NCBI GenBank assembly: GCA_041662665.1
Contig: JBAZSC010000003.1
Coordinates: forward strand, 76,333-140,332
Origin: Patescibacteria group bacterium
GTDB taxonomy: Bacteria > Patescibacteriota > JABMPQ01 > JAQVVF01
Direction: 5' to 3'
DNA length: 64,000 bases
This document shows, in pieces, positions 22,183 through 58,039 of this stretch. The notes under the pieces are model-generated. The model was not told the origin of the DNA and made no database searches. It was given only the letters and a program-made list of their open reading frames with translations. The position numbers and the translations under genes are program-made. How positions within the stretch are numbered: the first letter of the stretch is position 1; every line of letters begins with the position of its first letter.

Positions 22183-22872
22183 ATGGCACTACCAGAGTTG
22201 GTTGTTACCAGAAGTAATACAAAAGAAAAGATTACAAATGTATTAGTTATAGGATCACCTATGTTTGATAGTTTCGAAGTTGATTTAATGGAGACAAAAG
22301 ATGGAATGTTGGTGGTTGGTCATCCCAGTATTTTTCAGGCTCGTGATTATACTTTGATAGAGGCAAGAGCGCAAAGAGGAGCTTTAACTATTGATGAAAT
22401 GGCAGAAATTGTTTTGATGAATAATCTTCATGTTTTTTTGGACTTGAAGTATGAAGATATGGGCGAATTAGCAGCAAGCGAGATTAGAAGAGTTGGCTTG
22501 CAAAATCATTCGGTGTTGATTTCTTGGGGTCAGCAGAATTTGGTAGCTGTCAGACGAGTTGATAAAGAGCTTAAGACTGGTTGGATATTTAATGGCGCCT
22601 TGGAAGATCCAGCAGGTGAGATGGAAAGGTTGGGATGTAATTATTTTGTGACTTGTTTTTATTACATGACGACTGAATTTTGGGTGAAAATGCGTAATTT
22701 GCGCAGAAAATCTAAAGTTGGGCTTTGTTTGAGAAAAACTACTCATAAAAATGATTTAAAAATAGCCGCACATGAAGATGTAGAATTTATTTTTGTTGAT
22801 CCAGAAGTTAATTTAAATGAAATGCTTGTTACTTTTGCTCACGTGACAACTGAATTGATAGACGAACTTTGA
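22183..22872 (+). CDS. GDPD-like (glycerophosphodiester phosphodiesterase fold) protein, probably catalytically divergent
   Basis: 'FEVDLMETKDGMLVVGHP' resembles GDPD 'iElDvqlTkDgvlVvlHD', but the N-terminal HRG motif is replaced (GSP); strong SD GAGGAGGAAGAGG; higher G+C. Confidence 0.3.
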   Translation: MALPELVVTRSNTKEKITNVLVIGSPMFDSFEVDLMETKDGMLVVGHPSIFQARDYTLIEARAQRGALTIDEMAEIVLMNNLHVFLDLKYEDMGELAASEIRRVGLQNHSVLISWGQQNLVAVRRVDKELKTGWIFNGALEDPAGEMERLGCNYFVTCFYYMTTEFWVKMRNLRRKSKVGLCLRKTTHKNDLKIAAHEDVEFIFVDPEVNLNEMLVTFAHVTTELIDEL

Positions 22873-22987
22873 TACAGGCTTAGCCTGTTTTTTTATGTCT
22901 CACTTTAATATTTTTTCGAATAGAATGAATTAGTATGCTATCAGTTATATTAGAAAATCTATTAGAATGATAACAAAAAAACAGGAA

Positions 22988-23962
22988 TTAGATTCCTGTA
23001 GAGTTTAGACGAAGGTTCAATATTGGTACAGTTGGTCCAGCTGTTATTCTGATCAACCTGATATCTTTTTTGCGGTTTGAGAAAACATCGCCATCAATAA
23101 TGATATCTTCGTCAGTTTTAAGAATCAATTCTTTGGCATTGCCATTGATGACTTTTCGAGAAATAAGATCTCTTTTTACTTCTTTGCCCCAGAGATATCG
23201 AAATACATGGCTTAGAAGTTCATAGGCATTGAGAGAAAAAATACCAAGAAGAAATTGACCTTTTTGGATTCTTCCAGACAATGGTCTGAATGTTAGGACA
23301 ACATCTTTAATATTAGCAGCGATGATTCCAGCAAATTTTGTTCTTTCAAATTGCTGATTGTCATATGTTACTTTAGCTTGAGCATAATGGTAAATTCTGA
23401 ATCTGCTAAAAACAGTTCCAAGAATACAATGAAAGATTAAGCAAATCGCTGCCCAAAGACCCTTGCTTGTTTTTTCGTAATATTTCAAATAATCAACAAC
23501 AACTCCAATTGAAAAGAAAAATCCATAATAGATTTTTCCAGCATCATCAATTTGAATTAGCTCTTTTTGATAAATTGGATAATCTGGCTGAGATCTGATT
23601 TTTAAAACAGTTGCAAGATTTTCATGCGGATCTTTTTTGAAACCGAGAGCTTTGGCAACCATGGACATTGATCCGCCACCGATATGAGCGATAACTGGTA
23701 ATGCTTGCGTGCCATAAATTTTGAGAGTTTCTTGAATGATGTGGCGCAAAGCTCCATCTCCACCACAACAACAGATATAACGAACTTTTGCTTTTTTTAA
23801 CTTGCGAATAATACTTCTGACTTGTTCAGGACTTTGAGTAATAAAAACTTGGACATTTTCAACACTTGAGGCAACTTTTTTTATTCGATTGATGTATTTT
23901 AGTCCTTTTCTTCTAATCAGCATTGCATTGAGATTGATGATGACAGCAACTGGTGGTAGCAT
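22988..23962 (-). CDS. Diacylglycerol/lipid kinase catalytic-domain protein (YegS/BmrU family)
   Basis: DAGK_cat motif 'CCCGGDGALRHI'. Confidence 0.65.
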   Translation of the reverse strand: MLPPVAVIINLNAMLIRRKGLKYINRIKKVASSVENVQVFITQSPEQVRSIIRKLKKAKVRYICCCGGDGALRHIIQETLKIYGTQALPVIAHIGGGSMSMVAKALGFKKDPHENLATVLKIRSQPDYPIYQKELIQIDDAGKIYYGFFFSIGVVVDYLKYYEKTSKGLWAAICLIFHCILGTVFSRFRIYHYAQAKVTYDNQQFERTKFAGIIAANIKDVVLTFRPLSGRIQKGQFLLGIFSLNAYELLSHVFRYLWGKEVKRDLISRKVINGNAKELILKTDEDIIIDGDVFSNRKKDIRLIRITAGPTVPILNLRLNSTGI

Positions 23963-24199
23963 TTTGTCCTCCGTCTTTGTTTGTTAGGGTGCAATTTAGC
24001 TTAAATTAGCATAAAAATAAGTTATGCACAACAAAATTATTGATGTTTGGTTTTTGTTGTCCGTCACGCTAATGTTTTTGCGAATGACACTAATAAAAAC
24101 ACTAATAATTTGTTTATCCACAGCTTAAAGTATTGTTGTTTGGTTTTTGTTCGGTTATAATATAAATAACAAAATAACTAAATTATAAATAACAAAATT

Positions 24200-24811
24200 A
24201 TGAAAAAGCTAACAAAAAAACAAAAGATTTTATTAGATTTTTTGGCTAATTTTGAACAAGATAATGGCTATATGCCTTCGTATCAGGAAATCACAAGAGA
24301 GATGGGATTAAAATCAAAAGCAACTGTTTGGGAGCATTTGAAAAATTTGAAAGATAAAGGTTATTTGGATTTTGTAAAAGGAGCAGCTCGAGCGATAAAG
24401 TTAGAAGAAAAATTTAGATTATTTGCAAAAGCAGTCCAAGTACCTTTAGTTGGATTAATCGCAGCAGGCGAGCCAATAGAGGCCATAGAAGATAGAGAGA
24501 TGATGGATGTGCCAATTGGTTTTGTGAATGGCAAAAGAGTAGAAGATTGCTTTGCTTTGAAGGTAAGGGGTGATTCAATGATTGAAGATGGAATTTTAGA
24601 TGGCGATTATGTAATGGTGGAAAAAAATTATTATCCTAGTAATGGAGATGTCGTTGTAGCTTTATTAGGAAATGAATATGCAACTTTAAAAAGATATTAT
24701 CGAGAAAAAAAGCGAATTAGATTGCAACCAGCGAATTCAACGATGAAACCAATTTATGCAATTAATCCGGCGATACAAGGAGTGGTGAGGGCGGTGTTGA
24801 GAAAGTTCTAA
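24200..24811 (+). CDS. lexA: LexA repressor
   Basis: N-terminal wHTH; C-terminal S24 peptidase motifs 'VRGDSMIEDGILDGDYVMV', with Ala-Gly cleavage site and Lys in 'KRYYREKKRIRLQ'. Confidence 0.85.
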   Translation: MKKLTKKQKILLDFLANFEQDNGYMPSYQEITREMGLKSKATVWEHLKNLKDKGYLDFVKGAARAIKLEEKFRLFAKAVQVPLVGLIAAGEPIEAIEDREMMDVPIGFVNGKRVEDCFALKVRGDSMIEDGILDGDYVMVEKNYYPSNGDVVVALLGNEYATLKRYYREKKRIRLQPANSTMKPIYAINPAIQGVVRAVLRKF

Positions 24812-26647: not shown

Positions 26648-26759
26648 AAATAAAAAAATTTAGTTTTAAAATAGCTACTTTTTTGGCTTGACGAAATTAT
26701 TGATTATGTTAAACTTGAAACTTGCTGCCCCAAAGGACAAAGGGGCTTGGAGGAAAAGG

Positions 26760-27389
26760 ATGAGAGGGACGAGAATGAGTGCTTTGTGTTTGATGCTGGT
26801 TCTTTGTGCATGTTCTGCAAATCCATTTGAAGGCAGGCATAATGTAAATTCAGGTAATGGCAATATTGATGGCAAGAAGGCGATCACAACAGACATGCAA
26901 TTTTCTGTTGGCGAGGTTGATCCGTTTGATGAAGGAAATTTGGAAGTTTTGGATATGTCTGGTCGTGAGATTTTGCGTGTTGATGCTGTTGCTAATGACA
27001 CAAAACGACAGTTGAAGGCACTGTCTTGGTCTAAGGATTCTTCCAGATTTGCTGCTCTTTATAGTGATTATCAAGGAACCGAAGCCATTGTACACTGTAC
27101 TAATGATGCTTCTTATCCTTGTGGAAGAGCTGAATTCAAGAACATCAAGGAAACTAATTTTCACTATTTGACATTTAGCAATAATTTGGGATTTGTCTTG
27201 ATTTCGACTGATGGAAGTGCTGTTGAAGAGTTGCCAATTATTCCAATTTCTCCCGCTGTAATTGTTTCGCCTCCTATTGTTAATGAAGTAGAACTTGATG
27301 GTGGGACTGTAGTCAGTGATTCTGAAATTGTTCCACAGGAAATGGATGGATTAGTAATTGAAGTAGATTCTTCAACCTTGAAAAATTAA
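26760..27389 (+). CDS. Secreted or lipoprotein hypothetical protein
   Basis: SD GGAGG 6 nt upstream of ATG 26760; signal-like 'MSALCLMLVLCACSANP'. Confidence 0.45.
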   Translation: MRGTRMSALCLMLVLCACSANPFEGRHNVNSGNGNIDGKKAITTDMQFSVGEVDPFDEGNLEVLDMSGREILRVDAVANDTKRQLKALSWSKDSSRFAALYSDYQGTEAIVHCTNDASYPCGRAEFKNIKETNFHYLTFSNNLGFVLISTDGSAVEELPIIPISPAVIVSPPIVNEVELDGGTVVSDSEIVPQEMDGLVIEVDSSTLKN

Positions 27390-27992
27390 TTGCACCTTTT
27401 TTAAAACCAATTCTGTTTGGTTTTTTTTATTTTTTTTAAAATTTTCTTGACAAATATTTTTTTAATAATATTATATAAGCTATGTTGTTCTTTTTTTAAA
27501 AATGCAAAGGTAATTGTGGAGTGAACATTTTTTTAAGCGCTCGTGCGCGTTTTTTGAAGCTTTGGCTTTTTATATTTTGGCCGCGAGGCCAAACAGCGGG
27601 AAGGATTGATTCAATATTAAAAATGCTAGCTTAGAAAAATGCTTTGTTGAAGAATTTTTTTTGATACAAAGTCAGAACATCATTTTTTTTATAATATTCT
27701 TGCTAAAATTCTCCCTCATTCTTATGACGGATTTTAGCTGGCTCCCATAACTTTGCCGGCAGATATCTTTGGAGGTTACGGCCTCTGAGGACTACCGTGA
27801 AACAGTCAAGTTTCATGCCATGTAATTTAACCACATTGATTTTCTTTAGATTCTTTTTTTCTCTTGATTCTCGATGTGGTTGTTTTATTTTTGTTGAATT
27901 TTTTAGATAATTGTATTATAATATATTAAAATATTTTGATTGTTCTTTGAAATTTAAGTAGTTATTTTAATAAAAAACGGGAGGAGAGAAAC

Positions 27993-28121
27993 ATGAAACT
28001 GATTTGGAACATTGTTTGTTTTCCATTTCGGTCTTTGAAATTTTGGTTGGATTTTTTTATTTCATTGTATAAAATTGCGAGAATTAGCAAAGAATTGGCT
28101 ATTCTAGTAATAGAAATTTGA
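27993..28121 (+). CDS. Small ORF (42 aa, hydrophobic: MKLIWNIVCFPFRSLKFWLDFFISLYKIARISKELAILVIEI) with strong SD
   Basis: ACGGGAGGAGAGAAAC-ATG; not in the ORF track (<60 aa); sits inside an otherwise ORF-free 0.8-kb region. Confidence 0.3.
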   Translation: MKLIWNIVCFPFRSLKFWLDFFISLYKIARISKELAILVIEI

Positions 28122-28198
28122 GATTATGTTTTTCATCTTGATTAATTCAAAATGTTGATGTATGCTTTGATGTTTACCTCAAGCAAGAGGAGGGGAGA

Positions 28199-28606
28199 AT
28201 GGAAGGACAGCAAATTGGAAAAAAGAATTGGATTAAGGTAAATTCTGGTTGGACAACTTTGAGTGTTTTTTGTCTTTTGACTGGTTTAGGAATTCTCTCT
28301 AATCTTCTTTTTGAATTCTGTGGCAATGTTTTTCTTGCTTGTCTTGCAACATATGGACTTGTAATTTGTGTGATCTGGTGGTTTGCTGGATTGGGTAGTT
28401 TCGTAATGATTGGCAAGAAGACTTGGAGTCGTGCACTTTTTGCATTGGTTGCAATTGTAGTTTGGGGTGGTGTTGGTATTGTTGTCTACTATATTTGGAA
28501 AGATCTTTTTTGGGCAATTTTCAGTGTTCCTATTGCATATTGCTTTATTGCTCTTTATGTTGATTCGATTGCTAATGCAAGCAAGGAACAGTTGCAGTGG
28601 GGATGA
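28199..28606 (+). CDS. Small integral membrane protein (4 predicted TM helices)
   Basis: SD GAGGAGGGGAGA; hydrophobic helices. Confidence 0.45.
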   Translation: MEGQQIGKKNWIKVNSGWTTLSVFCLLTGLGILSNLLFEFCGNVFLACLATYGLVICVIWWFAGLGSFVMIGKKTWSRALFALVAIVVWGGVGIVVYYIWKDLFWAIFSVPIAYCFIALYVDSIANASKEQLQWG

Positions 28607-29029
28607 TCTTTTTGGATTCTTAATTGAATCCTTTTTTATTTTAAAAAAAATAATAAACTTGAATTTTATGATTGAAAAGGTAAAATAAGAGTATTAGAAT
28701 TATTTAAATCTTTGTCATATATTTTTTTAGATGACAGTTATTACAAAATAATTAAAAATATAATTGTTGAAGAAAGTCCACTTTTTCCGTAAAACAAAAC
28801 CTCATACGTTGTTTTCGAGCAACCCTGCGGAAGCCCACGTATGAGGATTTACTTGTATTTTTAGCGTAGCATATTTTTAAAATTATTACAAATGTTATCT
28901 AGAATTTGTAATGGCGCTGTGTGGTTGAAAAAAATATAATAGATTCTATGTTCTTCGCAGCCTGGCTTTACTTATTATTTAGAAAGAATATAATATATTT
29001 TTCGTACCCTAGAAAAGGAGGGAAGGGAA

Positions 29030-29395
29030 ATGGGATTAGTCTGGATTCCAATTGTGAAAAAAGATGTTGATGGAAGAAGTGAAAGCTTTTTTGAAACTCC
29101 GAATTTTATGAATTTGGCGCAATTTGTTAAGATTTTTCTAATTGATGTTGGGGCAAGAGAATTAAAAAAGTTTACTGAGGGTTTTGAAACTCCGCATTGG
29201 AAATTGGATGAGGAAATTAAGCCTGGTGCAATTTTGAAACTTACTACTTCTCCTTATTCTCATGTTGATCATGTTGTTGTAGTTGCTGTGAGGGATGATC
29301 GAGCCGATTTTCTTATCGGCAATACTTTAGAGAGGGCAAGAGCTGAATCTGAGCAACTCAAAAAATGGAAGCTTGATAGAGTTCGAAAAGTTTAG
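29030..29395 (+). CDS. Hypothetical protein (121 aa)
   Basis: SD AAAAGGAGGGAAGGG; own terminator at 29406-29429. Confidence 0.4.
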   Translation: MGLVWIPIVKKDVDGRSESFFETPNFMNLAQFVKIFLIDVGARELKKFTEGFETPHWKLDEEIKPGAILKLTTSPYSHVDHVVVVAVRDDRADFLIGNTLERARAESEQLKKWKLDRVRKV

Positions 29396-29527
29396 TACTT
29401 TTTATAACCGAAGATATTTCGGTTTTTTTATGGTCTCACACTAATATCTCGCTAATAGCGCTAATGTGTCGCTAATAAATTGTTTTATTAAAATTTTTGT
29501 TGTAAGATATTAGTTAATAAGAATATT

Positions 29528-31175: not shown

Positions 31176-31279
31176 TAAGTATCCTGAAAATCTAAGTTTG
31201 AGGTATTGAATACGAGTTAGACTAGTTAGATATGTTAGACTAGTTTTATATTTTTAGGTTTTTATATTTTTATGAAACG

Positions 31280-43905: not shown

Positions 43906-46860
43906 ATGAAAAAAATATTTGTATTTGGAGCAGTATTTATTGCTTTAATTTTGTTTTGTTTTTTTAATTTCATACCTATTAAAAATGTATTGGCTTCGGA
44001 ATCATGGAAAGCAATGGATGGTGGTACAAACAATGAAATAACTTCTTTTGCTGTTTATAATAACGAATTGTACGTTGGAGGAAGTTTTACAGAAGTTGGT
44101 GGAATTAGTGCAGATTATATTGCCAAATGGAATGGTTCAACTTGGAGTGATGTAGGGGGTGGAACGGATAGTGATGTTTTAGCAATGGCTGTTTATAATG
44201 GCGAACTTTACGTAGGTGGTTATTTTTCAGTGGTAGGAAGTGTTAGTGCTAATTATATAGCAAAATGGGATGGCAACACTTGGAGCGCTATTGGTACTGA
44301 ATCGATGGATAGCAATGTGTATGCTCTTACAGTGTTCAATAATAAACTTTATGTAGGCGGAGATTTTACTACAATTGATGGGGTAAATCCTGTATTATAT
44401 ATTGCATATTGGGATGGTAATACTTGGAGTGCTGTTGGAGCTGGAGTAGACTATGATATTTATGTTTTGGCTGTATATAATAATGAGTTGTATGCTGGAG
44501 GAGATTTTTTGAATGCTGGTGGGGCTAGCGCAAATTATATTGCAAAATGGGATGGTAATACTTGGAGTGCTATTGGTACTGGAACTGATAATACAGTTTA
44601 TACAATGGCAGAATATGATGGAGAACTTTATGTAGGCGGGAGATTTGATACAGCTGGTGGAGTGAGTGCCGCAAAAATTGCAAAGTGGGATGGCAATACT
44701 TGGAGTGTTGTTAGTACTGGTTTTGACAACACTGTACTAGTGCTTTCTGTTTATAATAATAAGCTTTATGCAGGAGGATATTTTAAAAATGCTGGTGGTG
44801 CTAATGCTAATTATGTTGCAAAATGGGATGGTGATGCTTGGAGCGGAGTCGGAACAGGTATGAATAGCTACATAAATGCATTTGTTATTTTTAACAATGC
44901 TTTATATGCTGGAGGTAATTTTGAGTTTATTAATGTTTTAAAAGCTGATTTTGTTGCAAAATGGGATAGTGATACTGCTGATTGGAGCTCAGTTGGTACA
45001 GGTATGAATGGTGCTATATATGATTTTGTTGTATATAATGCTGAGCTTTATGCAGCTGGTACTTTTTCTAATGCTGGAGGCGTAGTTGCACATTATATTG
45101 CAAAATGGGATGGTAATACGTGGACTGCATTGGCTTCAGAGGTAAATAACATTGTTTATACGTTAGTTGTTTATAATAACGAGCTTTACGCTGGTGGATA
45201 TTTTACCCAAGCTGGTGGGGGTAGCGCAAATTATATTGCAAAATGGGATGGAAATTCTTGGAGTGCACTTGGAACAGGAATGAATCAATATGTATACACA
45301 ATGGCTGTTTATAATGACGAGCTTTATGCTGGTGGAACTTTTGCTACCGCTGGCGGAGTTAGTGTTAACTATATTGCAAAATGGGATGGTAATGCTTGGA
45401 GTGCGCTTGGAACAGGAATGAACAGTTATGGTTTCGTAAATACTTTGGCAGTTTATAATAGTGAACTTTATGCAGGAGGAAATTTTACTACTGCAGGCGG
45501 TATTAGTGCTTTGCGTATTGCAAAATGGGACGGTGATTCCTGGAGCGCACTTGGAGTCGCGGGTACTGGGATGAATTCTTCTGTTGGTGCTTTAATCGTT
45601 CATAACAATGAACTTTATATTGGAGGTTATTTTACTACCGCTGGAACTGTTAATCCAGCTAATCGTATTGTGAAATGGGATGGTAATAATTGGTTTGCTT
45701 TAGGAAGCGGGGTAGAAGGACAAGGCGGTGCTGGGGTATCTAATCTTGATATCTATAATGATCAACTTTATGTAGCAGGAAATTTTACTTCTGCAGGTGG
45801 TATTGATGCATTTCGTATTGCAAAATGGGACGGTAATTCCTGGAGCGCAGTTGGAAATGGAGCAACTGATAGTGTGGCAGCAATGACTGATTACGATGGA
45901 GAGCTTTATGTTGGTGGTTTGTTTTACTATGTTGATGGTGAATCGGTACTACATATTGCATATACTGATAGTATTGTCCCAGTTACGACTGCTACTCCAG
46001 CAGGTGGAACTTATGATGATTCTGTGTCAGTAACTTTGGCATCCGATGAGACAGCAACAACTTATTATACTATTGATGGGTCTACTCCAAGCACATCTTC
46101 TTTAGTTTATTCTGATCCAATTGTGATTTCTCAAGATACAACGCTTAAATTTTTTTCTGCAGATTCCTTTGGTAATGAAGAAGTTGTGAAAACAGAGAAT
46201 TATGTTATAAATATAACACCAACTCCTACTCCAGAGCCGACTCCTACACCAACGCCAACAATATTATTTAATGAAAAAATAAATTTAAAGAATATTACAT
46301 TAAATACTATTTATCGAAGCCCAATTGATAATGCTGATCTTTTATTTTATAGGTTGCCTAAACAAGGATCGATAAAAGATTTGTATATAAAATTGATTCG
46401 AAATAAAACAAAATATATTAATGGTTTTACAAAAAAGAATAGTCATCCAGGTTATTTAAAGTTGTTATCAAATATAGGTACAGTTGACAAAGCATATTAC
46501 AATAAAGTTGATAAGCATATTAAATTTAGAATTTCAATTCGTTATTCAAAAAATAAATTAAACAAAGCAAATATCAAAGAAAAAGATTTGAGACTATTTA
46601 TAAAAGATAGAGATAATAATTGGCGAGGACCATTTACGATATATCAAAATAGAACTACTCATATAATAAAATTTAAGATCAGAAATTATTTGGTTAAAAT
46701 TCCAAATACAGCTACTTTGGCAAATGAAAATAGGACTTTTGCTCCATGTTTTTATTTTAAGACAATTGAAAAAATAAAATTTGTGATTGCGAAGAAAAAT
46801 GCATTGTCTAAATTAAGCAAGCTTGAGACTGTAGAAGATAAAAATTTGATTTTTGAATAG
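43906..46860 (+). CDS. Giant secreted modular protein: signal peptide, ~17 'YIAKWDGNTWS…NELYAGG.F..AGG' beta-propeller repeats, CHB_HEX_C-like domain, (PT)n linker, Lys-rich C-terminal domain
   Basis: Repeats of about 50 aa; 'TTYYTIDGSTPSTSS…TLKFFSADSFGN'; 'PTPTPEPTPTPTPT'; basic C-terminal domain of about 200 aa. Confidence 0.7.
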   Translation: MKKIFVFGAVFIALILFCFFNFIPIKNVLASESWKAMDGGTNNEITSFAVYNNELYVGGSFTEVGGISADYIAKWNGSTWSDVGGGTDSDVLAMAVYNGELYVGGYFSVVGSVSANYIAKWDGNTWSAIGTESMDSNVYALTVFNNKLYVGGDFTTIDGVNPVLYIAYWDGNTWSAVGAGVDYDIYVLAVYNNELYAGGDFLNAGGASANYIAKWDGNTWSAIGTGTDNTVYTMAEYDGELYVGGRFDTAGGVSAAKIAKWDGNTWSVVSTGFDNTVLVLSVYNNKLYAGGYFKNAGGANANYVAKWDGDAWSGVGTGMNSYINAFVIFNNALYAGGNFEFINVLKADFVAKWDSDTADWSSVGTGMNGAIYDFVVYNAELYAAGTFSNAGGVVAHYIAKWDGNTWTALASEVNNIVYTLVVYNNELYAGGYFTQAGGGSANYIAKWDGNSWSALGTGMNQYVYTMAVYNDELYAGGTFATAGGVSVNYIAKWDGNAWSALGTGMNSYGFVNTLAVYNSELYAGGNFTTAGGISALRIAKWDGDSWSALGVAGTGMNSSVGALIVHNNELYIGGYFTTAGTVNPANRIVKWDGNNWFALGSGVEGQGGAGVSNLDIYNDQLYVAGNFTSAGGIDAFRIAKWDGNSWSAVGNGATDSVAAMTDYDGELYVGGLFYYVDGESVLHIAYTDSIVPVTTATPAGGTYDDSVSVTLASDETATTYYTIDGSTPSTSSLVYSDPIVISQDTTLKFFSADSFGNEEVVKTENYVINITPTPTPEPTPTPTPTILFNEKINLKNITLNTIYRSPIDNADLLFYRLPKQGSIKDLYIKLIRNKTKYINGFTKKNSHPGYLKLLSNIGTVDKAYYNKVDKHIKFRISIRYSKNKLNKANIKEKDLRLFIKDRDNNWRGPFTIYQNRTTHIIKFKIRNYLVKIPNTATLANENRTFAPCFYFKTIEKIKFVIAKKNALSKLSKLETVEDKNLIFE

Positions 46861-46950
46861 ATTATCATTCGTTTTATTTTTGATTTTTAGATTATTTTGT
46901 TATATATTTTAAGTAGGATGTTCTTTCCTAAAGAGGAGGAGGGAGACGAA

Positions 46951-47550
46951 ATGGATCAACAAGTTGGACTTTGTGTTGGAGATTTACATAGAATCATCAA
47001 AACAAGAAAAGAAAATATTGAGCAACGAGACAGAATTTTGAAAGAAAAAGAAGAGGCAGAAAGACTAGAAAGTGTTAGATTGCATGAAGAATTGAAAGCA
47101 AGAAGCATGCATTTCCTTGGTGACTTTTTTGTAAAAGCATTAGATGCGATTTTGTTAAGAGCTGCTAGAGCTGGAAAAATGGAAGTTGAAATGTTTGGAT
47201 GCGGTGGACTTAAAACTTCGCTAGGATATTATTTCCATACTAGTAGTGAAACGGAAATTGGAGTTTTTAAGGAAACCTGGAAAGACGTAGTAGTTCTTAG
47301 AAGTGGTTCTTGTTGTGTGTATCTTTTTGGTGATGGCGGATATGTATCTGAGGATCGTTTTTTGTTCGATATATCTCTGCCTAGATTTGCTGGTTCTACT
47401 GGATATCTTTTTCCTGGGTATCCTAATGAGGCATGCTATTGGACGACTTTGAAATGTTTTATGAGATCTGATGCAAGTGAAGCATTCAGAGATCTAGTGA
47501 ATGCAAAGGGTTTGACTTTGTCTAAAAATTTTTGCACTATAAGTTGGTAA
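46951..47550 (+). CDS. Hypothetical protein (200 aa), high-GC strong-SD orphan cassette
   Basis: SD AAGAGGAGGAGGGAG; own terminator 47549-47570. Confidence 0.4.
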   Translation: MDQQVGLCVGDLHRIIKTRKENIEQRDRILKEKEEAERLESVRLHEELKARSMHFLGDFFVKALDAILLRAARAGKMEVEMFGCGGLKTSLGYYFHTSSETEIGVFKETWKDVVVLRSGSCCVYLFGDGGYVSEDRFLFDISLPRFAGSTGYLFPGYPNEACYWTTLKCFMRSDASEAFRDLVNAKGLTLSKNFCTISW

Positions 47551-47675
47551 TCGCATAAGCGATTTTTTTTGACTTAAATTTTATTTATTCTCAAACAATA
47601 TGGTTTCTATTGATTCGATTGGTTATCTGTGATATTATTTTTTTGGACTAGAAAACAGAAGAAGAGGAGGACGGC

Positions 47676-48083
47676 ATGCTGTTTTTGAGACTTTTGATGG
47701 GTAAAGATTTAGCAGACTTGACTAATGGCGAAAGTTATATTGTTGGATTGGAGATTGCTTGTTCTAAGGGAGATTTGAGTGCGGTTGAAGAAAGCTGGGT
47801 TCTTAGACTAAAGAAAGAGATTGAAACGTACGCTGAATGCCAGCTTGGATATTTGAATGAAGATGATCCGACTCTTGATGATATCGGAAGATCTTCATTT
47901 GAAATGTCTGGATTTACGGATAAAGATTGTATTTTTGGAAAGTCGAAAAAAAGTAGAGAAGTTCTTTTATCTGTTTTTAGTGAGCACTTTGACAAGAATC
48001 ATATTAAAGGTATTGCTGCTGATGCGATTAGTGATTACAATGTATCAATGATGGGACAATGGTATATCGAACATTTGACATGA
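47676..48083 (+). CDS. Hypothetical protein (135 aa), high-GC strong-SD orphan cassette
   Basis: SD GAAGAGGAGGACGG; own terminator 48081-48104. Confidence 0.4.
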   Translation: MLFLRLLMGKDLADLTNGESYIVGLEIACSKGDLSAVEESWVLRLKKEIETYAECQLGYLNEDDPTLDDIGRSSFEMSGFTDKDCIFGKSKKSREVLLSVFSEHFDKNHIKGIAADAISDYNVSMMGQWYIEHLT

Positions 48084-48143
48084 CCTATTTCGGGTCTTTT
48101 TTTATTTTTTGACTTGAGTCTTTTTTTGTAGTATATTTGAGTC

Positions 48144-49751
48144 ATGAAAATACTTTTAGCAGGCGGAGGAACAGGTGGGCATATTATGCCTATTTTGGCT
48201 GTAGTAAAGCAAATTGTAAGATTAAATCTCGAAGCCCAATTTTTGTGGATTGGAACAAAAAAAGGTCCGGAAGCCAAAATTGCACGTGAGAATAAAATTG
48301 AATTTAAAGCTGTCTTAGCTGGAAAAATGAGACGGTATGTTTCGTTTTGGAATTTTGTTGATATGGTTAAATTGCCTCTTGGTGTTGTACAAGCTTATTT
48401 TAAAGTAAAAAAATTCAAGCCTGATGTTTGTTTCAGCAAAGGCGGATATGTCAGTGTGCCAACTGTTATAGTTTGCAATCATTTTAAAATTCCAGTTTTG
48501 TTGCATGAATCAGATGTGATTGCTGGCAAGGCAAATTTGTTTATGGCAAAATATGCAAGTAAAATTGCATTAGGATTTGAAGAAGGAAAAAATAGTTTTA
48601 AAGATTTTTCTGACAAAATAATCATTACAGGCAATCCTGTTCGCGAGGAAATTTTATTAGCAAAAAAAGAAGATGGCATTAAAGATTTAAATTTAAATAA
48701 TAAAAAACCTGTATTATTAATAATTGGTGGAAGCCAAGGAGCGCAAAAAATTAATGATTTGATTGGCTTAGTTCTCCATAAATTATTAGAAAAATGGCAG
48801 ATTATTCATGTTGTTGGGCCATCACATGGCAATCAGATTTTAGGTAATGTAAAAGCATTAGAAAATGATTATCATATATTCCAATTTTTGGATGGCAAGA
48901 AAATGGGCGAGGCATTGTCAGTTTCTGATTTAATTATTTCTCGAGCTGGAGCAAATAGCTTGGCTGAAATTTCAGCATTAGGCAAGCCAGCAATTTTGAT
49001 TCCTTATCCTTTTGCATCATCTGATCATCAAAAAGCTAATGCAGAAATTTATGCAAAAAATAATGCAGCTGTAATTATAAACGAAAAAGATTTGACTTCA
49101 GAAAAATTATTGACTGATATAACAAGTTTGCAAGCTGATAAAGAAAAATTAGAAACAATGCATTTGGCAATGCTTAAGATGTTCAATAAAGATGCAAATA
49201 ATAAATTAGCAACTGAAATTTTAGGTCTAGCAAAATCAAAAAATGTTTTTGCAAAGAAAAATAAAAAAATATTAGTATTTGTTGAAGGTACGATTTTGAT
49301 GCACAAAAAAGGTTTAGGCGAAAGTCAAGAAAAAATTGTTTTGCAAGTTAAAAATAATGAGCCATCTGTGAAAGACTTTGCTAATTATATTATGATTGGT
49401 CACGCAAATGAAAAGCTAAAAAAATGGCAAGAACAAGGTGCAAAAATTTTATATTTAACTTCAAGAATTTCAATGGATGAAGTGTCGCAGATTGGCGAGG
49501 TTTTGGCAAAAAATAATTTTCCAGAAGGTGATTTATATTATCGAAAAGAAAATCAAAAATATAATAATATTATAGAATATGTAAAGCCTGATATTTTGAT
49601 TGAAGATGATTGTGAGAGTAACGGAGGTCAGAAAGAGATGGCGATTACATTAGTTAAGCCAGAAATAAAGAATAGTATTAAGTCAATTGTTGTTAAAGAA
49701 TTTCAGGGAATTGATAGTTTGTCGGACGATGTTAAATTGTTGAATGGTTAA
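48144..49751 (+). CDS. murG: MurG glycosyltransferase fused to a ~170-aa C-terminal extension domain
   Basis: GT28 motifs (GGGTGGH, 'IGGSQGA'); typical MurG is about 360 aa but this ORF is 535 aa; TTGACT-N17-TATATT promoter ends 6 nt before the ATG. Confidence 0.8.
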   Translation: MKILLAGGGTGGHIMPILAVVKQIVRLNLEAQFLWIGTKKGPEAKIARENKIEFKAVLAGKMRRYVSFWNFVDMVKLPLGVVQAYFKVKKFKPDVCFSKGGYVSVPTVIVCNHFKIPVLLHESDVIAGKANLFMAKYASKIALGFEEGKNSFKDFSDKIIITGNPVREEILLAKKEDGIKDLNLNNKKPVLLIIGGSQGAQKINDLIGLVLHKLLEKWQIIHVVGPSHGNQILGNVKALENDYHIFQFLDGKKMGEALSVSDLIISRAGANSLAEISALGKPAILIPYPFASSDHQKANAEIYAKNNAAVIINEKDLTSEKLLTDITSLQADKEKLETMHLAMLKMFNKDANNKLATEILGLAKSKNVFAKKNKKILVFVEGTILMHKKGLGESQEKIVLQVKNNEPSVKDFANYIMIGHANEKLKKWQEQGAKILYLTSRISMDEVSQIGEVLAKNNFPEGDLYYRKENQKYNNIIEYVKPDILIEDDCESNGGQKEMAITLVKPEIKNSIKSIVVKEFQGIDSLSDDVKLLNG

Positions 49752-49823
49752 ATTGTTGCTAAACTGTTAGTTTTTAAAATTTGGGAAATAAAAAAATCCA
49801 CATTAGTAGTGGATGAAAATGAA

Positions 49824-50069
49824 CTATTCTTTTTCTGTTGGAACGAACTGAAGTTGTTCTCCTGAATCAGGATCTGGCAAACAGATTTTGATTTTTGTAG
49901 GAGTCGCGTATGTACCTTCTGGATCATTGACGCCTTGCATCACACCTTGAATTTCCGTAAGTGACCATTTGGGAGGACATTTTCTTTCTTCAGAATGTTT
50001 GACAATTTCTTGATTTGAGGCACATCCGAGCAATATGATTGATGCAACAACAAGAATTGTTCTTCTCAC
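49824..50069 (-). CDS. Small lipoprotein (lipobox LLGC)
   Basis: GTG start preceded by AAAGGAGGGAAAAG; signal 'MRRTILVVASIILLGCAS'. Confidence 0.45.
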   Translation of the reverse strand: MRRTILVVASIILLGCASNQEIVKHSEERKCPPKWSLTEIQGVMQGVNDPEGTYATPTKIKICLPDPDSGEQLQFVPTEKE

Positions 50070-50118
50070 TTTTCCCTCCTTTGTGGACGGTTTATTAGTA
50101 TAATAGAAATGTTATCTT

Positions 50119-51384
50119 ATGTCAATAAATTTACAAAAATTTAAAAAAGTATATTTTATTGGTATTGGTGGAATTGGTGTTTCTGCTGTTGCTAGAATTT
50201 TTTTGCAAAAAAATATTGAAGTTGTTGGATCTGATCTGGTTGAAAGTGTTGTGACAAAAGATTTAATTAAAAAAGGAGCAAAGATTTTTGTTGGCAAACA
50301 TGATGCAAAGAATTTGCCTGATGATGTTGATTTAGTTGTGCATACTGTTGCTGCAACATCCGATAATCCAGAATTAGTTAAGGCAAAGAAGTCGGGAATT
50401 AAGACGATGAGCTATCCTGAAGTTTTGGGTGAATTAACAAAAAATAAATATTTGATTGCAGTTTCTGGAACACATGGAAAGACAACAACAACAGCGATGA
50501 TTGGATTAATGTTAGTTGACGCTGGTCTTGATCCAACTGTGATTGTTGGATCTAACATTAAAGAATTTGATGGCAATGCAAGATTAGGAAAAAGCGATTA
50601 TTATGTTATTGAGGCAGATGAATATCGCCGAGCATTTTTAAATTATAAGCCAAAAATTGCAGTGGTATTAAATATTGAATTTGATCATCCGGATTGTTAT
50701 AAAGATTTAGATGATGTAAAAGATGCATTTAATCTTTTTATTGCTAGGGCAGATTATATTGTTGATCATCCAGAAAATTTGATGAATGATTTGAATTTAA
50801 AATTAAAAGTTCCAGGAAAAGGTTTTTTACTTGATGCTCTTGCTGCTCGAGAAGTTGGCAGAATTCTGGAAATTGATGATAAAATTATTAAAGAGAGCTT
50901 GGAAAATTATCAAGGATCTTGGCGGAGATTTGAAATAAAAGGAGAGATTAATGGAGTAATTGTCGTTGATGATTATGCTCATCATCCAACAGAAGTAAAA
51001 TCAACTTTGCAGGCAGCGAAAGAAAAATATCCTGATAAAAATATTGTTTGTGTTTTTCAACCGCATCATCAAGATAGATTTAATGCTTTGTTTGATGAAT
51101 TTGTCGGTGCTTTTAATGATTGTGATAGAGTGATTTTGACTGATGTGTATCATGTGGCTGGAAGAGAAGAAAACAGAAAACAGAAAACAGGAAACAGGAA
51201 AACTTCTGAGGATTTAGCAAAGAAAATTGGTCAAAAGGTAATCTATGTTGGTGGACTTGATGAAGCCTTTGAATGGCTGAAAAAAAATGTTAAACCTGGT
51301 GATGTGGTACTTACTATGGGAGCAGGGACAATAACAGAGGTAAGTGATAAATTGATTAAAAATTTAAAATTAAAAAATAAATAA
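50119..51384 (+). CDS. murC: UDP-N-acetylmuramate--L-alanine ligase
   Basis: 'YFIGIGGIGVSAVA', 'GTHGKTTTT'; contains the low-complexity insert at 51164-51204. Confidence 0.85.
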   Translation: MSINLQKFKKVYFIGIGGIGVSAVARIFLQKNIEVVGSDLVESVVTKDLIKKGAKIFVGKHDAKNLPDDVDLVVHTVAATSDNPELVKAKKSGIKTMSYPEVLGELTKNKYLIAVSGTHGKTTTTAMIGLMLVDAGLDPTVIVGSNIKEFDGNARLGKSDYYVIEADEYRRAFLNYKPKIAVVLNIEFDHPDCYKDLDDVKDAFNLFIARADYIVDHPENLMNDLNLKLKVPGKGFLLDALAAREVGRILEIDDKIIKESLENYQGSWRRFEIKGEINGVIVVDDYAHHPTEVKSTLQAAKEKYPDKNIVCVFQPHHQDRFNALFDEFVGAFNDCDRVILTDVYHVAGREENRKQKTGNRKTSEDLAKKIGQKVIYVGGLDEAFEWLKKNVKPGDVVLTMGAGTITEVSDKLIKNLKLKNK

Positions 51385-54184: not shown

Positions 54185-54200
54185 ATGTTGCATTAAATAA

Positions 54201-54265
54201 GTTAGATTAGTTAGATAGGTTAGACTGGTTATTTATAAATTGTTCAATTGTTAAATTGTTAATAT
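54201..54265 (+). repeat. GTTAGATNN array followed by ATTGTTAA array
   Basis: gttagatta gttagatag gttagactg gtta … attgttca attgttaa attgttaa. Confidence 0.65.
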
Positions 54266-54779: not shown

Positions 54780-57536
54780 ATGGCATTTGATTTTTTTAAA
54801 AAAATATTTGGTGATCCAAATAAACGAGTTGTTGATCAGCTCGCTCCAATAGTTTCGCAAATTAATTCTTTGGAATCAGGTTTGAAAGATTTGTCAGCTG
54901 AAGAATTAAAATCTAGAACAAAAAAATTAAAAGATGAATTAAAAAATGGCAAGACTTTAGACGATATTTTGCCTGAGGCTTTTGCTTTAGTTCGAGAGGC
55001 TTCCAGAAGAACGACAAAAATGAGACATTTTGATGTTCAGCTTTTGGGTGGAATTGTTCTTCATCAAGGAAAAATATCAGAAATGAAAACTGGTGAAGGA
55101 AAAACTTTGGTGGCAACATTGCCATTATATTTGAATGCATTGTCAGGCAAAGGCTCTCATTTAATTACTGTTAATGATTATTTGGCAAGAAGAGATACAG
55201 TATGGATGGGGCAGATTTATGATGCTCTTGGATTAAGTGTTGGTTGTATTCAGCATGAACAGGCTTTTGTTTACGATTCTCAATATAGCAAAAAGAATAA
55301 TGAATCAGGAATAATGAATAATGAAGAACTTGATGAAGAAAGAGATGAAATGGGAAGTTTTAAAGTATTCCATGAATATCTAAGACCAGTTTCTAGAAAA
55401 GAAGCATATAATGCTGATATTACTTACGGAACAAATAATGAATATGGTTTTGATTATTTGAAAGATAATATGGTTGCAGAGCTTGCTGAAAAAGTTCAAA
55501 GAAATTTGAATTTTGCAATTGTTGATGAAGTTGACTCTATTTTGATTGATGAAGCAAGAACTCCGTTGATTATTTCTGCTCCAGCAGAAGAAGCAGTTGA
55601 TATGTATAATCAATTTGCAAGCTTGATTCCAAAATTAAAAGAAAATGAAGATTACAATATTGATGAAAAAATGCGGGCAGCAACTTTGACAGATAAAGGA
55701 ATCGCAAAGCTTGAAAAAATGTTGGGATTGCAGAATATTTATGAAGAAAAAGGAATAGAAATTGTCCATCATATTGAACAAGCTTTGAAAGCGCATACTT
55801 TGTTTAAAAGAGACAAAGATTATGTTGTAAAAAATAATGAAGTAATAATTGTTGATGAATTTACTGGCAGATTAATGCCTGGCCGTAGATTTTCTGAAGG
55901 TTTGCATCAAGCGTTGGAAGCAAAAGAAAACGTGGCGATTCAGCGAGAATCAAGAACATTAGCAACAATTACATTTCAAAATTATTTTAGAATTTATAAA
56001 AAATTAGCTGGCATGACTGGAACTGCGGCAACATCAGCTGAAGAATTTTCAAAAGTTTATAAATTGGATGTTGTTATAATTCCAACCAATAAACCATTAA
56101 TACGTGAGGATTTAAATGATTTGGTTTATAAATCAGAATTAGGAAAATATATTGCTGTAGTTAAAGATGTAAAAGAAAGAAATAAAAAAGGTCAGCCAGT
56201 TTTGATTGGTACGATTTCAATTGAAAAAAATGAGAGATTAGGACAAATGTTGCAAGACGAAGGAATTATATGCAATGTTTTAAATGCAAAGAACCATGAA
56301 AAAGAAGGCGAGATAATTGCTCAAGCTGGTAGATTAAATGGCGTGACAGTTGCAACAAACATGGCAGGTCGCGGTGTTGATATTATTTTGGGTGGAGTGC
56401 CTTTGAATAAAGAAGAAGCAGAAAAAATTAAACAATTAGGTGGTCTTCATGTTATTGGAACAGAAAGGCATGAAGCAAGAAGAATAGATAATCAGCTTCG
56501 AGGTAGAGCTGGACGTCAAGGCGATCCTGGTTCTTCACAATTTTTTGTGTCAATGGAAGATGATTTGATGAGAATTTTTGGTTCTGACAGAATGAAAAAA
56601 ATGATGGATACTTTGAAATTGCCAGAAGATCAGCCAATTGAACATGGATTAATCTCAAAATCAATTGAAGCAGCTCAAAATAAAGTTGAAGGAAATAATT
56701 ATGATATTAGAAAACATGTTTTGGAATATGATGATGTGATGAATAAACATCGGGAAGTCATTTATAAAAAGCGTAATGCGATACTTGATGCTTGGGAACG
56801 AGAAAAAAGGGAAATAGGAAACAGAAAACAGGAAACAGGAAAAGAAATGCAAACTTTGAAAAGTATTATTTTAGAATATATTGAAGATGAAATTGAGCAA
56901 ATTGTAACAAATCATACTGGTACAGAAGATGTTGAGAATTGGAATTGTGAAGAAATTTATGAATCTGTAAAAACTATTTTTCCAGTATCGCAAGATATTC
57001 ATCTTGAATTGGAAAATTTAGCAAAAAAAGCTGGCAATGAAAAAAATGGAGCTGAAGCAAGAACGATAATTATTGATTATCTTTTTGATTTGGCAAGGAA
57101 AGCTTATGATGCGAAAGAAAAAGAAAATGGTGAGGAAGGAATGAGGCAAATCGAAAGAGCTGTTTTGCTTCGAACTATTGATTCTTTGTGGATGGATCAT
57201 TTGGATGCAATGGAATATATGAGAGAGGGAATTGGCTTGCGAGGTTTTGGACAAAGAGATCCATTAGTTGAATATAAAAAAGAAGCATTTGGAATGTTTG
57301 GTGCTTTGTTGGCAGAAATTCAAAATAGAGTTGTTTATACTATTTATAAAGTTGGAATTGTGACACAACAAGTATCGCCAATGCAAAAAGCAAAACAACA
57401 AATGCAAACTTCAGGCGCGGAAAAAGGTGAAGATTCTAAAACTTTGCCAGAGCACTCTAGCAAAATTGGAAGAAATGATCCGTGTATTTGTGGAAGTGGG
57501 AAAAAATACAAGCACTGTTGCGGAAAAAACAAATAG
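54780..57536 (+). CDS. secA: Preprotein translocase ATPase SecA (with C-terminal zinc-binding tail)
   Basis: DEAD-like motor motifs, 'MAGRGVDI', C-terminal [14 protein letters not shown]; contains the low-complexity insert at 56815-56844. Confidence 0.95.
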
Positions 57537-57565
57537 AAATTCGGAAATTATGAAATTCGGAAATT

Positions 57566-57660
57566 TCTACCCAACTTCAGTTGGGGTTAGGTGAACTTTA
57601 GTTCACGGACGACGAAAAACTAAAGTTTTTTTGACCCCAACTGAAGTTGGGTAGGGTACT
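57566..57660 (+). repeat. MITE-like inverted-pair version of the two-hairpin element (ctacccaacttcagttggggt … accccaactgaagttgggtag); likely also the secA terminator
   Basis: 21-nt perfect terminal inverted repeats flanking gtgaac/ttta/gttcac and an A/T run. Confidence 0.65.
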
Positions 57661-57697
57661 CTAAAAATCAAAATAAAAAAACGAACGTGGAAGTTCG

Positions 57698-58039
57698 TTA
57701 TGCGGAAAGTGCTTTGAAGACAATTCTTGCGTAGTAAGAGCAGACGATTGTAGGTGGAATATCATCTGTGCCATCATTTTTTGTAATTCTGCTATATCTT
57801 TCAAGCTGAACAGTAAAATGATTGAAGGGTGGACTGGAAAGTAAATCATTTGCTGTAGATTGGACCAGATTGCTACATTTTTCTATTCCTCTATCAGATC
57901 GTTCCATAAAACAGATTTCTGCAACTACTCGATTATTTGCAGAACAATTCTTAGCGTGGTTGGCAATTTTTGCAGCAGTTTCCATGATACGCCAAATAGG
58001 CATACCTTCGCAAACAATATAAGTTTTTTCCTCTTGCAT
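57698..58039 (-). CDS. Hypothetical protein (113 aa), high-GC strong-SD orphan
   Basis: AAGGAGGAGAAAAAG upstream of the minus-strand ATG at 58039. Confidence 0.4.
   Translation of the reverse strand: MQEEKTYIVCEGMPIWRIMETAAKIANHAKNCSANNRVVAEICFMERSDRGIEKCSNLVQSTANDLLSSPPFNHFTVQLERYSRITKNDGTDDIPPTIVCSYYARIVFKALSA

Follow-up and report, generated by a model that had tools for sequence, protein, structure and literature searches.

Shine-Dalgarno-led genes with features of moron-like expression units in an otherwise Shine-Dalgarno-less stretch of a Patescibacteria genome

Background

Phage morons are recognised by their own transcription signals, a deviant GC content, a position between genes that are neighbours elsewhere, and hot spots at which such insertions recur (Hendrix and colleagues; PMC2920897). 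A precedent concerned with translation comes from the Bacteroidia, which have Shine-Dalgarno (SD)-"blind" ribosomes and in which rpsU is regulated through its SD (PMC7797042, PMC9976891, PMC13000453), Flavobacterium johnsoniae having a single strong-SD gene (PMC13000453). Here, a 64,000-nucleotide stretch of a Patescibacteria genome (assembly GCA_041662665.1, contig JBAZSC010000003.1, positions 76,333 to 140,332 of the forward strand; hereafter the window) was analysed, in which a minority of genes with very strong SDs is scattered among genes that lack one. These genes (the SD class; with their flanking signals, SD units) coincide in the window with the variable, compositionally deviant and orientation-free part of the genome.

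Patescibacteria, or the candidate phyla radiation (CPR), account for a large share of bacterial diversity and have orphan-rich genomes, and the ways in which genes that are lineage-specific, and presumably serve host interaction, are taken up and expressed in them are poorly understood. Two further arrangements are of relevance: integron cassettes have no promoter of their own and are expressed from a common Pc, and SD-sequestering leaders (translational T-boxes and RNA thermometers) as well as 5' stabiliser SDs are known in Firmicutes. In literature searches on Shine-Dalgarno sequences in CPR, no description of a within-genome split into SD-led accessory units and an SD-less core was found. 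An earlier reading of the window (the original prediction) had picked out eight scattered open reading frames (ORFs) and explained them either as repeated insertions of foreign single-gene cassettes or as a distinct expression class.

Results

Two classes of translation start

The SD of each gene was scored as the duplex energy between the 22 nt 5' of the start codon and ACCUCCUUU, an anti-SD assumed to be canonical. The energies of the 55 window genes were strictly bimodal: 15 genes (about 27%) lay at or below -9.3 kcal/mol and the remaining 40, the backbone, at or above -4.7 kcal/mol, with an empty gap between the two. Every GGAGG in the window was also listed, which brought out hidden members of the class, and correctly spaced sites were present at SD-class genes only. 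Over positions -20 to -1, backbone genes had 85% A+T and 9% G, whereas the SD class had 41% G and 2% T.

All eight ORFs of the original prediction were present at the positions given, and the AGGAGG-rich SDs ascribed to them were seen as GGAGG-type purine tracts, the core of which ended 5-12 nt before the start in all eight. The claim that backbone genes lack such a signal likewise held. The list proved to be incomplete, the class being about twice as large, and the seven added members are indicated in Table 1. For gene calling it is of consequence that the longest-ORF rule misplaced the start in five of the 15 SD-led genes (9835, 10954, 12055, 17907 on the minus strand, and 26760), the real start being an internal SD-led ATG. 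For the tryptophanyl-tRNA synthetase (TrpRS) gene at 9835 this was backed independently by an ENA record of 336 aa, the length that the SD-led start gives; the starts of the other four were picked on account of the SD. The start at 46951 was confirmed, the mechanical ORF call beginning at 46897.

Composition, orientation and coding status

The two classes also differed in composition, as the original prediction had proposed (GC and GC3 were compared by Mann-Whitney tests). Mean GC was 0.364 in the SD class and 0.313 in the backbone (p=9e-6), and GC3 was 0.265 against 0.211 (p=2e-5), so that the predicted elevation in G+C is real for the class as a whole, with the exception of the 42-aa small ORF (sORF) at 27993 (0.27). 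At two-fold sites, C/(C+T) was 0.175 in the SD class vs 0.117 in the backbone and G/(G+A) was 0.377 vs 0.272, while the encoded proteins contained less Lys (5.5% vs 9.6%) and Asn (3.9% vs 5.9%) and more Arg (5.7% vs 3.2%) and Cys (2.3% vs 0.8%), these six comparisons being descriptive. TGA stops terminated 7/15 SD-class genes compared to 3/40 backbone genes (p=0.002), and all four minus-strand protein genes of the window belonged to the SD class (4/15 vs 0/40, p=0.004). The GC3 values, the shift from Lys and Asn to Arg and Cys, the TGA stops and the random orientation argue for a different or shorter history than that of the core. The starts themselves differed as well: the first 40 nt of the coding sequence (CDS) had a GC of 0.37 in the SD class vs 0.27 in the backbone, and a folding energy of -5.0 vs -2.5 kcal/mol (p=4e-4).

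Most members of the SD class are orphans. In a word-index homolog search, 57698 and 22183 retrieved only themselves, as did 46951 in an exhaustive phmmer search against 1.84e9 representatives; the protein sets searched comprised 5.8e9 and 1.84e9 sequences, Firmicutes included. Nothing above threshold was obtained for the orphans from Pfam, NCBIfam, PHROGs or PADLOC, nor anything by a PDB sequence search, and in this respect the original prediction was right about its own list. It does not extend to the class, which also contains TrpRS, a methyltransferase-like gene, a T-box-controlled phosphoenolpyruvate (PEP)-utilising enzyme, a pyridoxal-phosphate (PLP) decarboxylase and a DAGK-type lipid-kinase-like gene. 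The JGI name of 22183, "glycerophosphoryl diester phosphodiesterase", was corroborated neither by Pfam at E<=10 nor by the PDB sequence search. Single-sequence AlphaFold2 models were poor (pLDDT 46 for 46951 and 37 for 22183) and unusable for fold searches. Nevertheless, the orphans of the SD class are genuine coding genes, as is evident from the order GC1>GC2>GC3 in seven of the eight listed ORFs and from dN/dS values of 0.11-0.28 in the two with orthologs, namely a 77-aa ORF of two relatives and the 191-aa orphan of the window. The eighth ORF, the sORF, has an SD but neither this codon-position signature nor a terminator directly after it, and its coding status is doubtful.

Architecture of the SD units

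The units share a common order: the preceding terminator, a promoter-like TTGAC(A/T)-N16-18-TAnnnT, a leader of 30-65 nt, a purine SD tract, the start codon, the ORF and a terminator. The SD tract consists of 13-20 nt, all purines and including GGAGG, with the start codon 5-12 nt 3' of it, and the terminators are hairpins of 5-9 bp followed by T7-8. A terminator, counted as a hairpin plus T-run at most 70 nt from the stop, was present in 11/15 SD-class and 5/40 backbone genes (Fisher p=3e-5), and two of the five backbone terminators in fact close SD-class units. Hexamers resembling -35 and -10 elements precede most units, 12 found in a scan and others read by eye, all of them consensus matches. 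Of the private promoter and intrinsic terminator that had been claimed for each listed gene, the terminator was borne out, except for the sORF, and the promoters, a -35/-10-like pair 5' of the SD of each, are candidates suggested by position and consensus.

In approximately 12 of 15 minimum-energy folds a pyrimidine run in the leader (CCTTC, CCC or TTCTTT) paired with the SD, leaving the SD core partly paired, though these hairpins were weak (z-scores mostly -1 to -2.8, range -2.8 to +1.5). Four leaders open with TGTTCTTT near the predicted transcription start, a composite pattern expected 0.15 times; over the whole window the motif is not enriched (7 observed vs 6.8 expected), and only its placement 5' of SDs is unusual. 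Unrelated genes also share leader elements. The leaders of 12055, 29030 and 10954 have AGAAAAGGAGGGAAGG(G)AA before the ATG in common, with 12055 and 29030 further sharing ATGGGA at the start, and those of 17907 and 58039 share GCACCTTC..ACAACAAGG(G)AGG..AAAAAGAAAA. Such sharing was modestly above shuffled controls (p=0.03, 0.003 and <0.003). A junction of the form hairpin-T7-A-TTGACT recurs. A search of 2.9 M viral contigs for two leader-module patterns yielded 13 matches to the first and none to the second; all 13 lay in coding sequence of unrelated phages of 48-68% GC, and their number was about that estimated for chance.

Two ORF-free segments lie among the units. The first, 27440-27890, contains a strong promoter-like TTGACA-16-TATTAT at 27447, the TGTTCTTT motif and G+C-rich hairpins (GCGCTCGTGCGCGTTTTTT, TTGGCCGCGAGGCCAA), and the second, 28760-28870, contains a long hairpin (CCTCATACGT...ACGTATGAGG). 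Both may encode small RNAs; a search of 27380-29040 against Rfam gave no match even at E<=1.

Unit turnover in close relatives

Two related loci, L001 and L002, aligned with window positions 36-60 kb, their backbone DNA being about 80-84% identical to that of the window, with a range of 73-84%, and a third, L007, reached via a TrpRS homolog (P0003), covered 9.7-18.9 kb at about 74-86% identity. Over the 24 kb compared in L001 and L002, sequence orthologs were found for 14/15 backbone genes but for 0/4 SD units (Fisher p=0.001), and the slots of the listed units were either empty or occupied by unrelated or duplicated SD units. The genes 46951 and 47676 had been thought to interrupt the dcw cluster, and so they do: between ftsW and murG the window has a 4.2-kb block, whereas the two genes are adjacent in L001 and L002, separated by a spacer of 75-140 bp (window positions 43858 and 48106, at the edges of the block, correspond to 9887 and 9963 of L001). 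Besides these two units, the block contains a propeller protein of 984 aa, a DUF5122/Rax2-like beta-propeller surface protein with repeats of about 138 nt and a CHB_HEX_C/Fn3_assoc domain. It is absent from L001 and L002, yet of backbone type, with no SD and a low GC3. CHB_HEX_C/Fn3_assoc domains also occur in the proteins encoded at 1528-3330 and 7573-9684.

The remaining slots differed in other ways. Between murG and murC, the putative lipoprotein gene of the window is replaced in L001 and L002 by an unrelated SD-led ORF of 77 aa (62% identity between the two, dN/dS 0.11), with a promoter-like site at the identical position in all three genomes, its -35 TTGACA overlapping the murC start codon. 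The slot between secA and the deacetylase gene has one unit in the window, two tandem paralogous units in L001 and none in L002. Within this family (57698 and the two L001 copies) the ORFs are only 20-27% identical and recognisable at the N-terminus alone, whereas the terminator is invariant at 24/25 positions and the leader core (ACCTTCCT.GAAA) is invariant too; one compensatory CCTAG/CTGGG change was seen in the leader among the three paralogs. The CGAAC-N6-GTTCG of the terminator was considered as a LexA box and dropped, as no similar palindrome was found near lexA or dinB. Between murB and HPF the window is empty, and L001 and L002 each have their own minus-strand SD-led gene; between the amidohydrolase gene and yfiH, window and L001 are empty and L002 has a minus-strand SD-led gene of its own, which by eye reads as a secreted coiled-coil-like protein.

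L007 retains TrpRS, the 191-aa orphan, the methyltransferase, the T-box enzyme and the decarboxylase, with an SD on all of them, though two units are in swapped order relative to the window and an extra SD-led peptidase unit is present. The 191-aa orphan (12055) was 63% identical to its ortholog, with a dN/dS of 0.28. The GGAGG core was kept in every orthologous pair despite a dS of about 0.9-1.4, so that purifying selection is seen on the SD cores as well as on the ORFs. It is chiefly on this retention that the case for functional SDs rests.

The individual units and their surroundings

The coordinates of the units are collected in Table 1.

Table 1 SD units of the window and the block missing from two relatives (positions in the window; "added" marks members missing from the original prediction)
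Feature	Extent	Strand	CDS	Signals and remarks	Status
TrpRS unit	9762-10880	plus	9835-10845	TTGACA-17-TAAGAT 9762-9790; purine SD 9818-9834; terminator 10855-10880	added
Methyltransferase-like unit	10878-11985	plus	10954-11952 (ORFs 10954-11622 and 11665-11952)	promoter-like site; SD; terminator 11958-11983	added
Orphan unit, 191 aa	11984-12667	plus	12055-12630	promoter-like site; TGTTCTTT leader motif; SD; terminator	added
PPDK_N/PEP-utilizers enzyme unit	12675-15660	plus	13094-15619	promoter-like site; T-box 12724-13019; SD; hairpin 15634-15651	added
PLP-dependent decarboxylase unit	16483-17976	minus	16483-17907	leader GCACCTTCACAACAAGGGAGGG; promoter-like site 17976-17948	added
Orphan unit, 229 aa	22108-22895	plus	22183-22872	TTGACA-17-TATTCT; TGTTCTTT leader motif; SD; terminator 22874-22895	listed
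DAGK_cat lipid-kinase-like unit	22981-24005	minus	22988-23962	terminator 22999-22981	added
Putative lipoprotein unit	26722-27425	plus	26760-27389	GC-rich leader hairpin; SD; terminator	added
Two-ORF unit (sORF, 42 aa; 135-aa protein)	27894-28640	plus	27993-28121 (doubtful); 28199-28606	TTGAAT-17-TATAAT; each ORF SD-led; terminator 28614-28640	listed
Orphan unit, 121 aa	28967-29432	plus	29030-29395	TTTACT-16-TATAAT; SD; terminator 29406-29432; leader near-identical to that of 12055	listed
Orphan unit, 199 aa	46880-47572	plus	46951-47550	TTGATT-17-TATATT; TGTTCTTT leader predicted to pair with SD; terminator 47549-47572	listed
Orphan unit, 135 aa	47610-48105	plus	47676-48083	TG-extended promoter-like site; SD; terminator 48082-48105	listed
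Putative lipoprotein unit, 81 aa, murG-murC slot	49796-50125	minus	49824-50069	-35 TTGACA overlapping murC start codon; terminator 49814-49796	listed
Orphan unit, 113 aa, secA-deacetylase slot	57680-58119	minus	57698-58039	anti-SD-like leader hairpin CCTTCCTCGAAAGAGG; terminator AACGAACTTCCACGTTCGTT	listed
Block missing from L001/L002 between ftsW and murG	43859-48105	plus		propeller protein 43906-46860; 46951 unit; 47676 unit	

TrpRS matched TIGR00233 with 262 bits (cut-off 176.75) and has a GC of 0.405 and a GC3 of 0.323. The methyltransferase-like gene, which is split into two ORFs in the window, is a single 331-aa gene in L007 (84-86% identity), the split pointing to a frameshift or a pseudogene, unless it is an error of sequencing. 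The T-box was a full-length match to RF00230 (99.8 bits, the gathering score being 93), and its specifier, in the loop GAAAAUGGAU, is probably UGG (Trp) when read by eye; a T-box ahead of a PEP-utilising enzyme is an unusual arrangement. The leader of the decarboxylase, GCACCTTCACAACAAGGGAGGG, is also found in L007. The whole of 9762-17976 makes up a tryptophan-themed block, with TrpRS, the T-box and its PEP-utilizers enzyme (rifampicin-phosphotransferase/PEP-synthase-like), a low-molecular-weight phosphatase, a tRNA-Trp and the PLP decarboxylase. Set beside a tRNA-linked genomic island, for which an integrase, flanking direct repeats and a tRNA at the border would be expected, this block of 9.7-18 kb has its tRNA-Trp (16323-16399, minus strand) inside and is kept in L007; there is no integrase in the window, though one flanks the analogous SD-rich block of L021. 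As judged by eye, 49824 and 26760 begin with putative lipoprotein-type signal peptides, and the hydrophobic product of 28199 is probably a multi-pass membrane protein.

The window has a G+C content of 32%, a strongly positive GC skew and nearly all of its genes on the plus strand. Pfam identified a loose cluster of cell-wall and division genes (MraY, Ddl, FtsQ, Mur ligase, FtsW, MurG, MurC and MurB) together with HPF, SecA, SecD, LexA/DinB and an ABC transporter, besides several surface proteins of FG-GAP or beta-propeller type; the window is devoid of rRNA and ribosomal-protein genes, and an Rfam scan of it returned only the T-box and tRNAs. One of the core genes, at 3812-4894, codes for a bacterial homolog of eRF1-like release factors (baeRF family 10) that has eRF1 domains 2 and 3. 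Regarding core starts, the promoter-like TTGACT-17-TATATT of murG (48109-48146) has a -10 ending 6 nt 5' of the ATG, which suggests a leaderless or near-leaderless mRNA, and the predicted leaders of the ABC ATPase (18079) and murC (50119) are likewise very short.

Tandem arrays of 8-9-nt units, namely GTTAGAYNN x3-5, ATTGTTNA and AAAGTTNAT, stand right after stops in backbone intergenic regions (5883-5923, 31208-31266, 38539-38588, 40252-40310, 54193-54233 and 60030-60070; 7488-7537, 49728-49761 and 54231-54264; 4893-4932 and 19817-19873), and the ftsW-murG spacer of L001 has a TCTCTAATT array. They belong to the SD-less core, not to the SD units. Several backbone operons are followed by copies of a REP-like palindrome (CTACCCAACTTCAGTTGGGGT...) (57561-57660, 1301-1339, 3436-3474 and 34636-34674; in L001, 6056-6100 and 15075-15153), the copy at 57561-57660 being an inverted pair that adjoins the secA-slot unit. 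Finally, murC (51161-51202) and secA (56802-56843) have in their 3' parts a purine-rich repeat of 42 nt (GAAAACAGAAAACAGGAAACAGGAAAA), the two copies being 86% identical.

Nearest to the window genome, in a genome-collection scan with MurG, were metagenome-assembled genomes (MAGs) labelled Patescibacteria or "Ca. Saccharibacteria". A metagenome scan recovered the identical strain and two distant loci. The segment 20.2-24.3 kb was matched at 99.98% identity by a JGI contig, and 22183 with identical neighbours was also present on two contigs from other datasets (Logan, ENA), so that the context of this unit was seen again in three further assemblies; the arrangement of the segment is thus not an assembly artefact.

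Discussion

We lean towards reading the SD units as moron-like, self-sufficient expression units which form a fast-turnover flexible genome within an SD-less core. On balance, it also seems rather likely that two translation-initiation regimes exist in one CPR genome and map onto two kinds of genes. The core is made up of co-directional operons (dcw/mur, secA, secD, the ABC transporter, lexA/dinB) with A/T-rich, G-poor and weakly structured starts, devoid of SDs and almost devoid of intrinsic terminators. The SD kind comprises orphans, small envelope-type proteins and the tryptophan-related cluster, each gene forming a unit of its own with a predicted sigma-70-like promoter, a 30-65-nt leader whose pyrimidine run may pair with the SD, an SD of maximal strength, the ORF and usually a terminator. 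If the candidate promoters fire, promoter and terminator would insulate expression of a unit from the surrounding core operon, allowing it to lie between two core genes or in antisense orientation. The ribosomes presumably bear an anti-SD, through which the strong SD would recruit the 30S subunit to starts with more G+C or structure than the SD-independent route of the core can cope with. Among congeners, units would be gained, lost, replaced, tandem-duplicated and reordered within a small number of intergenic slots, any single difference being readable as a gain or as a loss. The source of the units is likely exchange within the Patescibacteria gene pool and not import from Firmicutes. A bolder extension, in which Patescibacteria have a split genome of vertically inherited, SD-independent core and SD-dependent "plug-and-play" units whose conserved ends act as substrates for a recombinase-free cassette exchange (swapping and duplication of units and replacement of ORFs at fixed slots), and in which a distinct ribosome state might even translate the flexible genome, appears doubtful; the similarly speculative candidates for such ends would be the terminator and leader of the 57698 family, the leaders that unrelated genes have in common and the terminator/-35 junction.

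Several observations weigh against the moron-like reading. Only the three relatives were compared, over 10-24 kb each, and the retention of the units of 9.8-18 kb in L007, at about 82% DNA identity, means that part of the SD class is not recent, while the 984-aa propeller protein is variable but SD-less. With DNA so rich in A+T, the promoter-like hexamers scarcely outnumbered those in shuffles (95 against 77+/-10, and 100 against 93+/-10), and nothing that would serve as a mechanism of transfer, be it repeats, an integrase or phage genes, was seen in the window. The best named matches of TrpRS (50-57%) were mostly from CPR, being Portnoy-, Falkow- and Parcubacteria MAGs in addition to one labelled Planctomycetota at 56%, with no Firmicute among them. 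In a distant Parcubacteria locus (L023), strong SDs precede NusA, ClpB, GreA and dCMP deaminase and are lacking on L19 and RNase HII; the first three being core genes, SD use may be the sign of a native class of regulation or expression and not of acquisition. Lastly, one study detected the anti-SD motif in no more than 48% of the 16S genes of Parcubacteria (PMC9297842), although the conserved and correctly spaced SDs argue for a working anti-SD having been kept in the lineage of the window.

A native class of this kind, in which an SD route would serve high or conditional expression and composition would reflect selection and not history, is a credible explanation, compatible with a flexible genome and not exclusive of it, and we regard it as possible although less than probable. 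Leaders that sequester the SD in the manner of a T-box or a thermometer, or else a sub-population of ribosomes, would then exert the control. It would account for the L023 genes, the CPR affinity of TrpRS, the SDs conserved between orthologs, the leader modules common to unrelated genes, the prevalent pairing of pyrimidine runs with SDs, the compensatory change in the 57698 family and the position of one member behind a T-box. The leader folds are weak, though, with some z-scores positive, and the parallel rise of C- and G-ending codons and the many TGA stops resemble a general GC shift more than translational selection. Random orientation beside a fully co-directional core, slots in which relatives have unrelated ORFs and no sequence ortholog of the window units, and the predominance of orphans without any homolog are not what it would lead one to expect either. 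Of the original prediction's second proposal, the distinct expression class, the part that stands is a class defined by its mode of translation initiation.

Its first proposal holds for unit turnover and is not supported as regards a Firmicute-style, foreign origin. GGAGG SDs, intrinsic terminators and T-box leaders are Firmicute hallmarks, and the units have a GC above that of the backbone, as recent imports from SD-using and T-box-using Firmicutes might. The named relatives of TrpRS, the one SD-class gene that could be placed, are nevertheless almost all CPR MAGs, no homolog of the orphans searched turned up in protein sets with Firmicutes among them, a GC of just 0.36 and uniform purine-only leaders look home-grown, and mixtures of SD-led and SD-less genes are a trait of these Parcubacteria, so that a Firmicute donor is not indicated and we consider such imports very improbable. 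In one Parcubacteria MAG (L021) the TrpRS/PLP-decarboxylase pair lies in an SD-rich block that adjoins a phage-type integrase and TrpG/TrpD, the next 7 kb being wholly SD-less, and in another locus (L022) TrpRS lies within a Trp-dioxygenase/kynureninase operon. The integrase of L021, along with the hot-spot slots holding differing units, the unit ends conserved around divergent ORFs in the 57698 family and the recurrent terminator/-35 junction, would suit cassettes of a dedicated mobile system, be it integron-like, a miniature inverted-repeat transposable element or other transposon, or phage or prophage morons, moved by site-specific recombination or transposition. That explanation is improbable as well: no integrase or transposase domain was detected by Pfam among the window genes scanned (nearly all), no target-site duplications, attC-like sites or repeats, including the flanking direct repeats that had been suggested as a check, were seen at the borders of the ftsW-murG block or the secA-slot unit, PHROGs gave no hits, the leader motifs are at chance level in viral contigs, and the units have promoter-like sites where integron cassettes have none. 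An artefact of spurious ORFs or chimeric assembly, for which only the sORF lacking a coding signature and the low-confidence AlphaFold2 models of two orphans could be cited, deserves next to no weight in view of the matching contigs around 22183 from JGI, Logan and ENA, the dN/dS values, the codon-position GC of the other seven listed ORFs and the consistent geometry of SD, start and terminator.

If the moron-like reading were to apply genome-wide, the sequence of a single genome would flag its flexible part together with candidate surface and effector proteins. A filter may be envisaged, in which only newcomers with a strong SD, a promoter and a terminator are expressed in an SD-less AT-rich genome without disturbing core operons. 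Moreover, the reduced ribosomes of CPR would offer a natural system that combines SD-dependent and SD-independent initiation.

Comparison with known systems

The units resemble phage morons in several respects. They are single genes between two genes that are adjacent in relatives, they have their own signals (terminators in 11/15 vs 5/40 genes; promoters as consensus matches), their GC is unlike that of surrounding genes (p~1e-5 for GC and GC3), and different, mostly hypothetical or surface, proteins occupy the same hot spots in different genomes. Own signals, deviant GC and insertion at hot spots are thus all seen, and residence in a phage or prophage is not: the units lie in a cellular chromosome, within core operons such as dcw and with mur, fts and sec neighbours, without phage genes, PHROGs hits or related viral contigs. 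They go beyond the moron concept in that they differ from their surroundings in translation initiation too (SD vs none).

Integron cassettes are similar as single-ORF modules that accumulate and are exchanged at defined sites. Unlike these, the SD units have no integrase, attC or Pc, the only hairpins after their ORFs being terminators of 5-9 bp; each has its own promoter-like site, SD and usually terminator, and instead of forming an array they lie dispersed, several on the opposite strand. With SD-sequestering leaders they share a nearby upstream pyrimidine run able to pair with the SD, and one genuine T-box is present; the predicted hairpins of the units are in contrast short and weak and, the T-box aside, belong to no Rfam family.

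The study of Parcubacteria ribosomes (PMC9297842) concerns the same radiation, in which SD use is reduced or variable, and deals with rRNA and ribosomal proteins and not with a within-genome split. In Bacteroidia, as in the window, most genes are SD-less with A-rich upstream regions and a minority have a strong, extended SD, which implies two initiation modes in one cell. Blindness of the Bacteroidia type entails an anti-SD that is present but sequestered by bS21/bS18/bS6. Unlike F. johnsoniae with its one gene, 15/55 window genes have a strong SD and 40/55, with 85% A+T upstream, do not, and whereas the SD of rpsU in Bacteroidia serves autoregulation of a ribosomal protein, the genes with an SD in the window are accessory ones or orphans. 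What would be new here is the combination of moron-like units with dual initiation regimes, each of a known kind, in an under-studied radiation.

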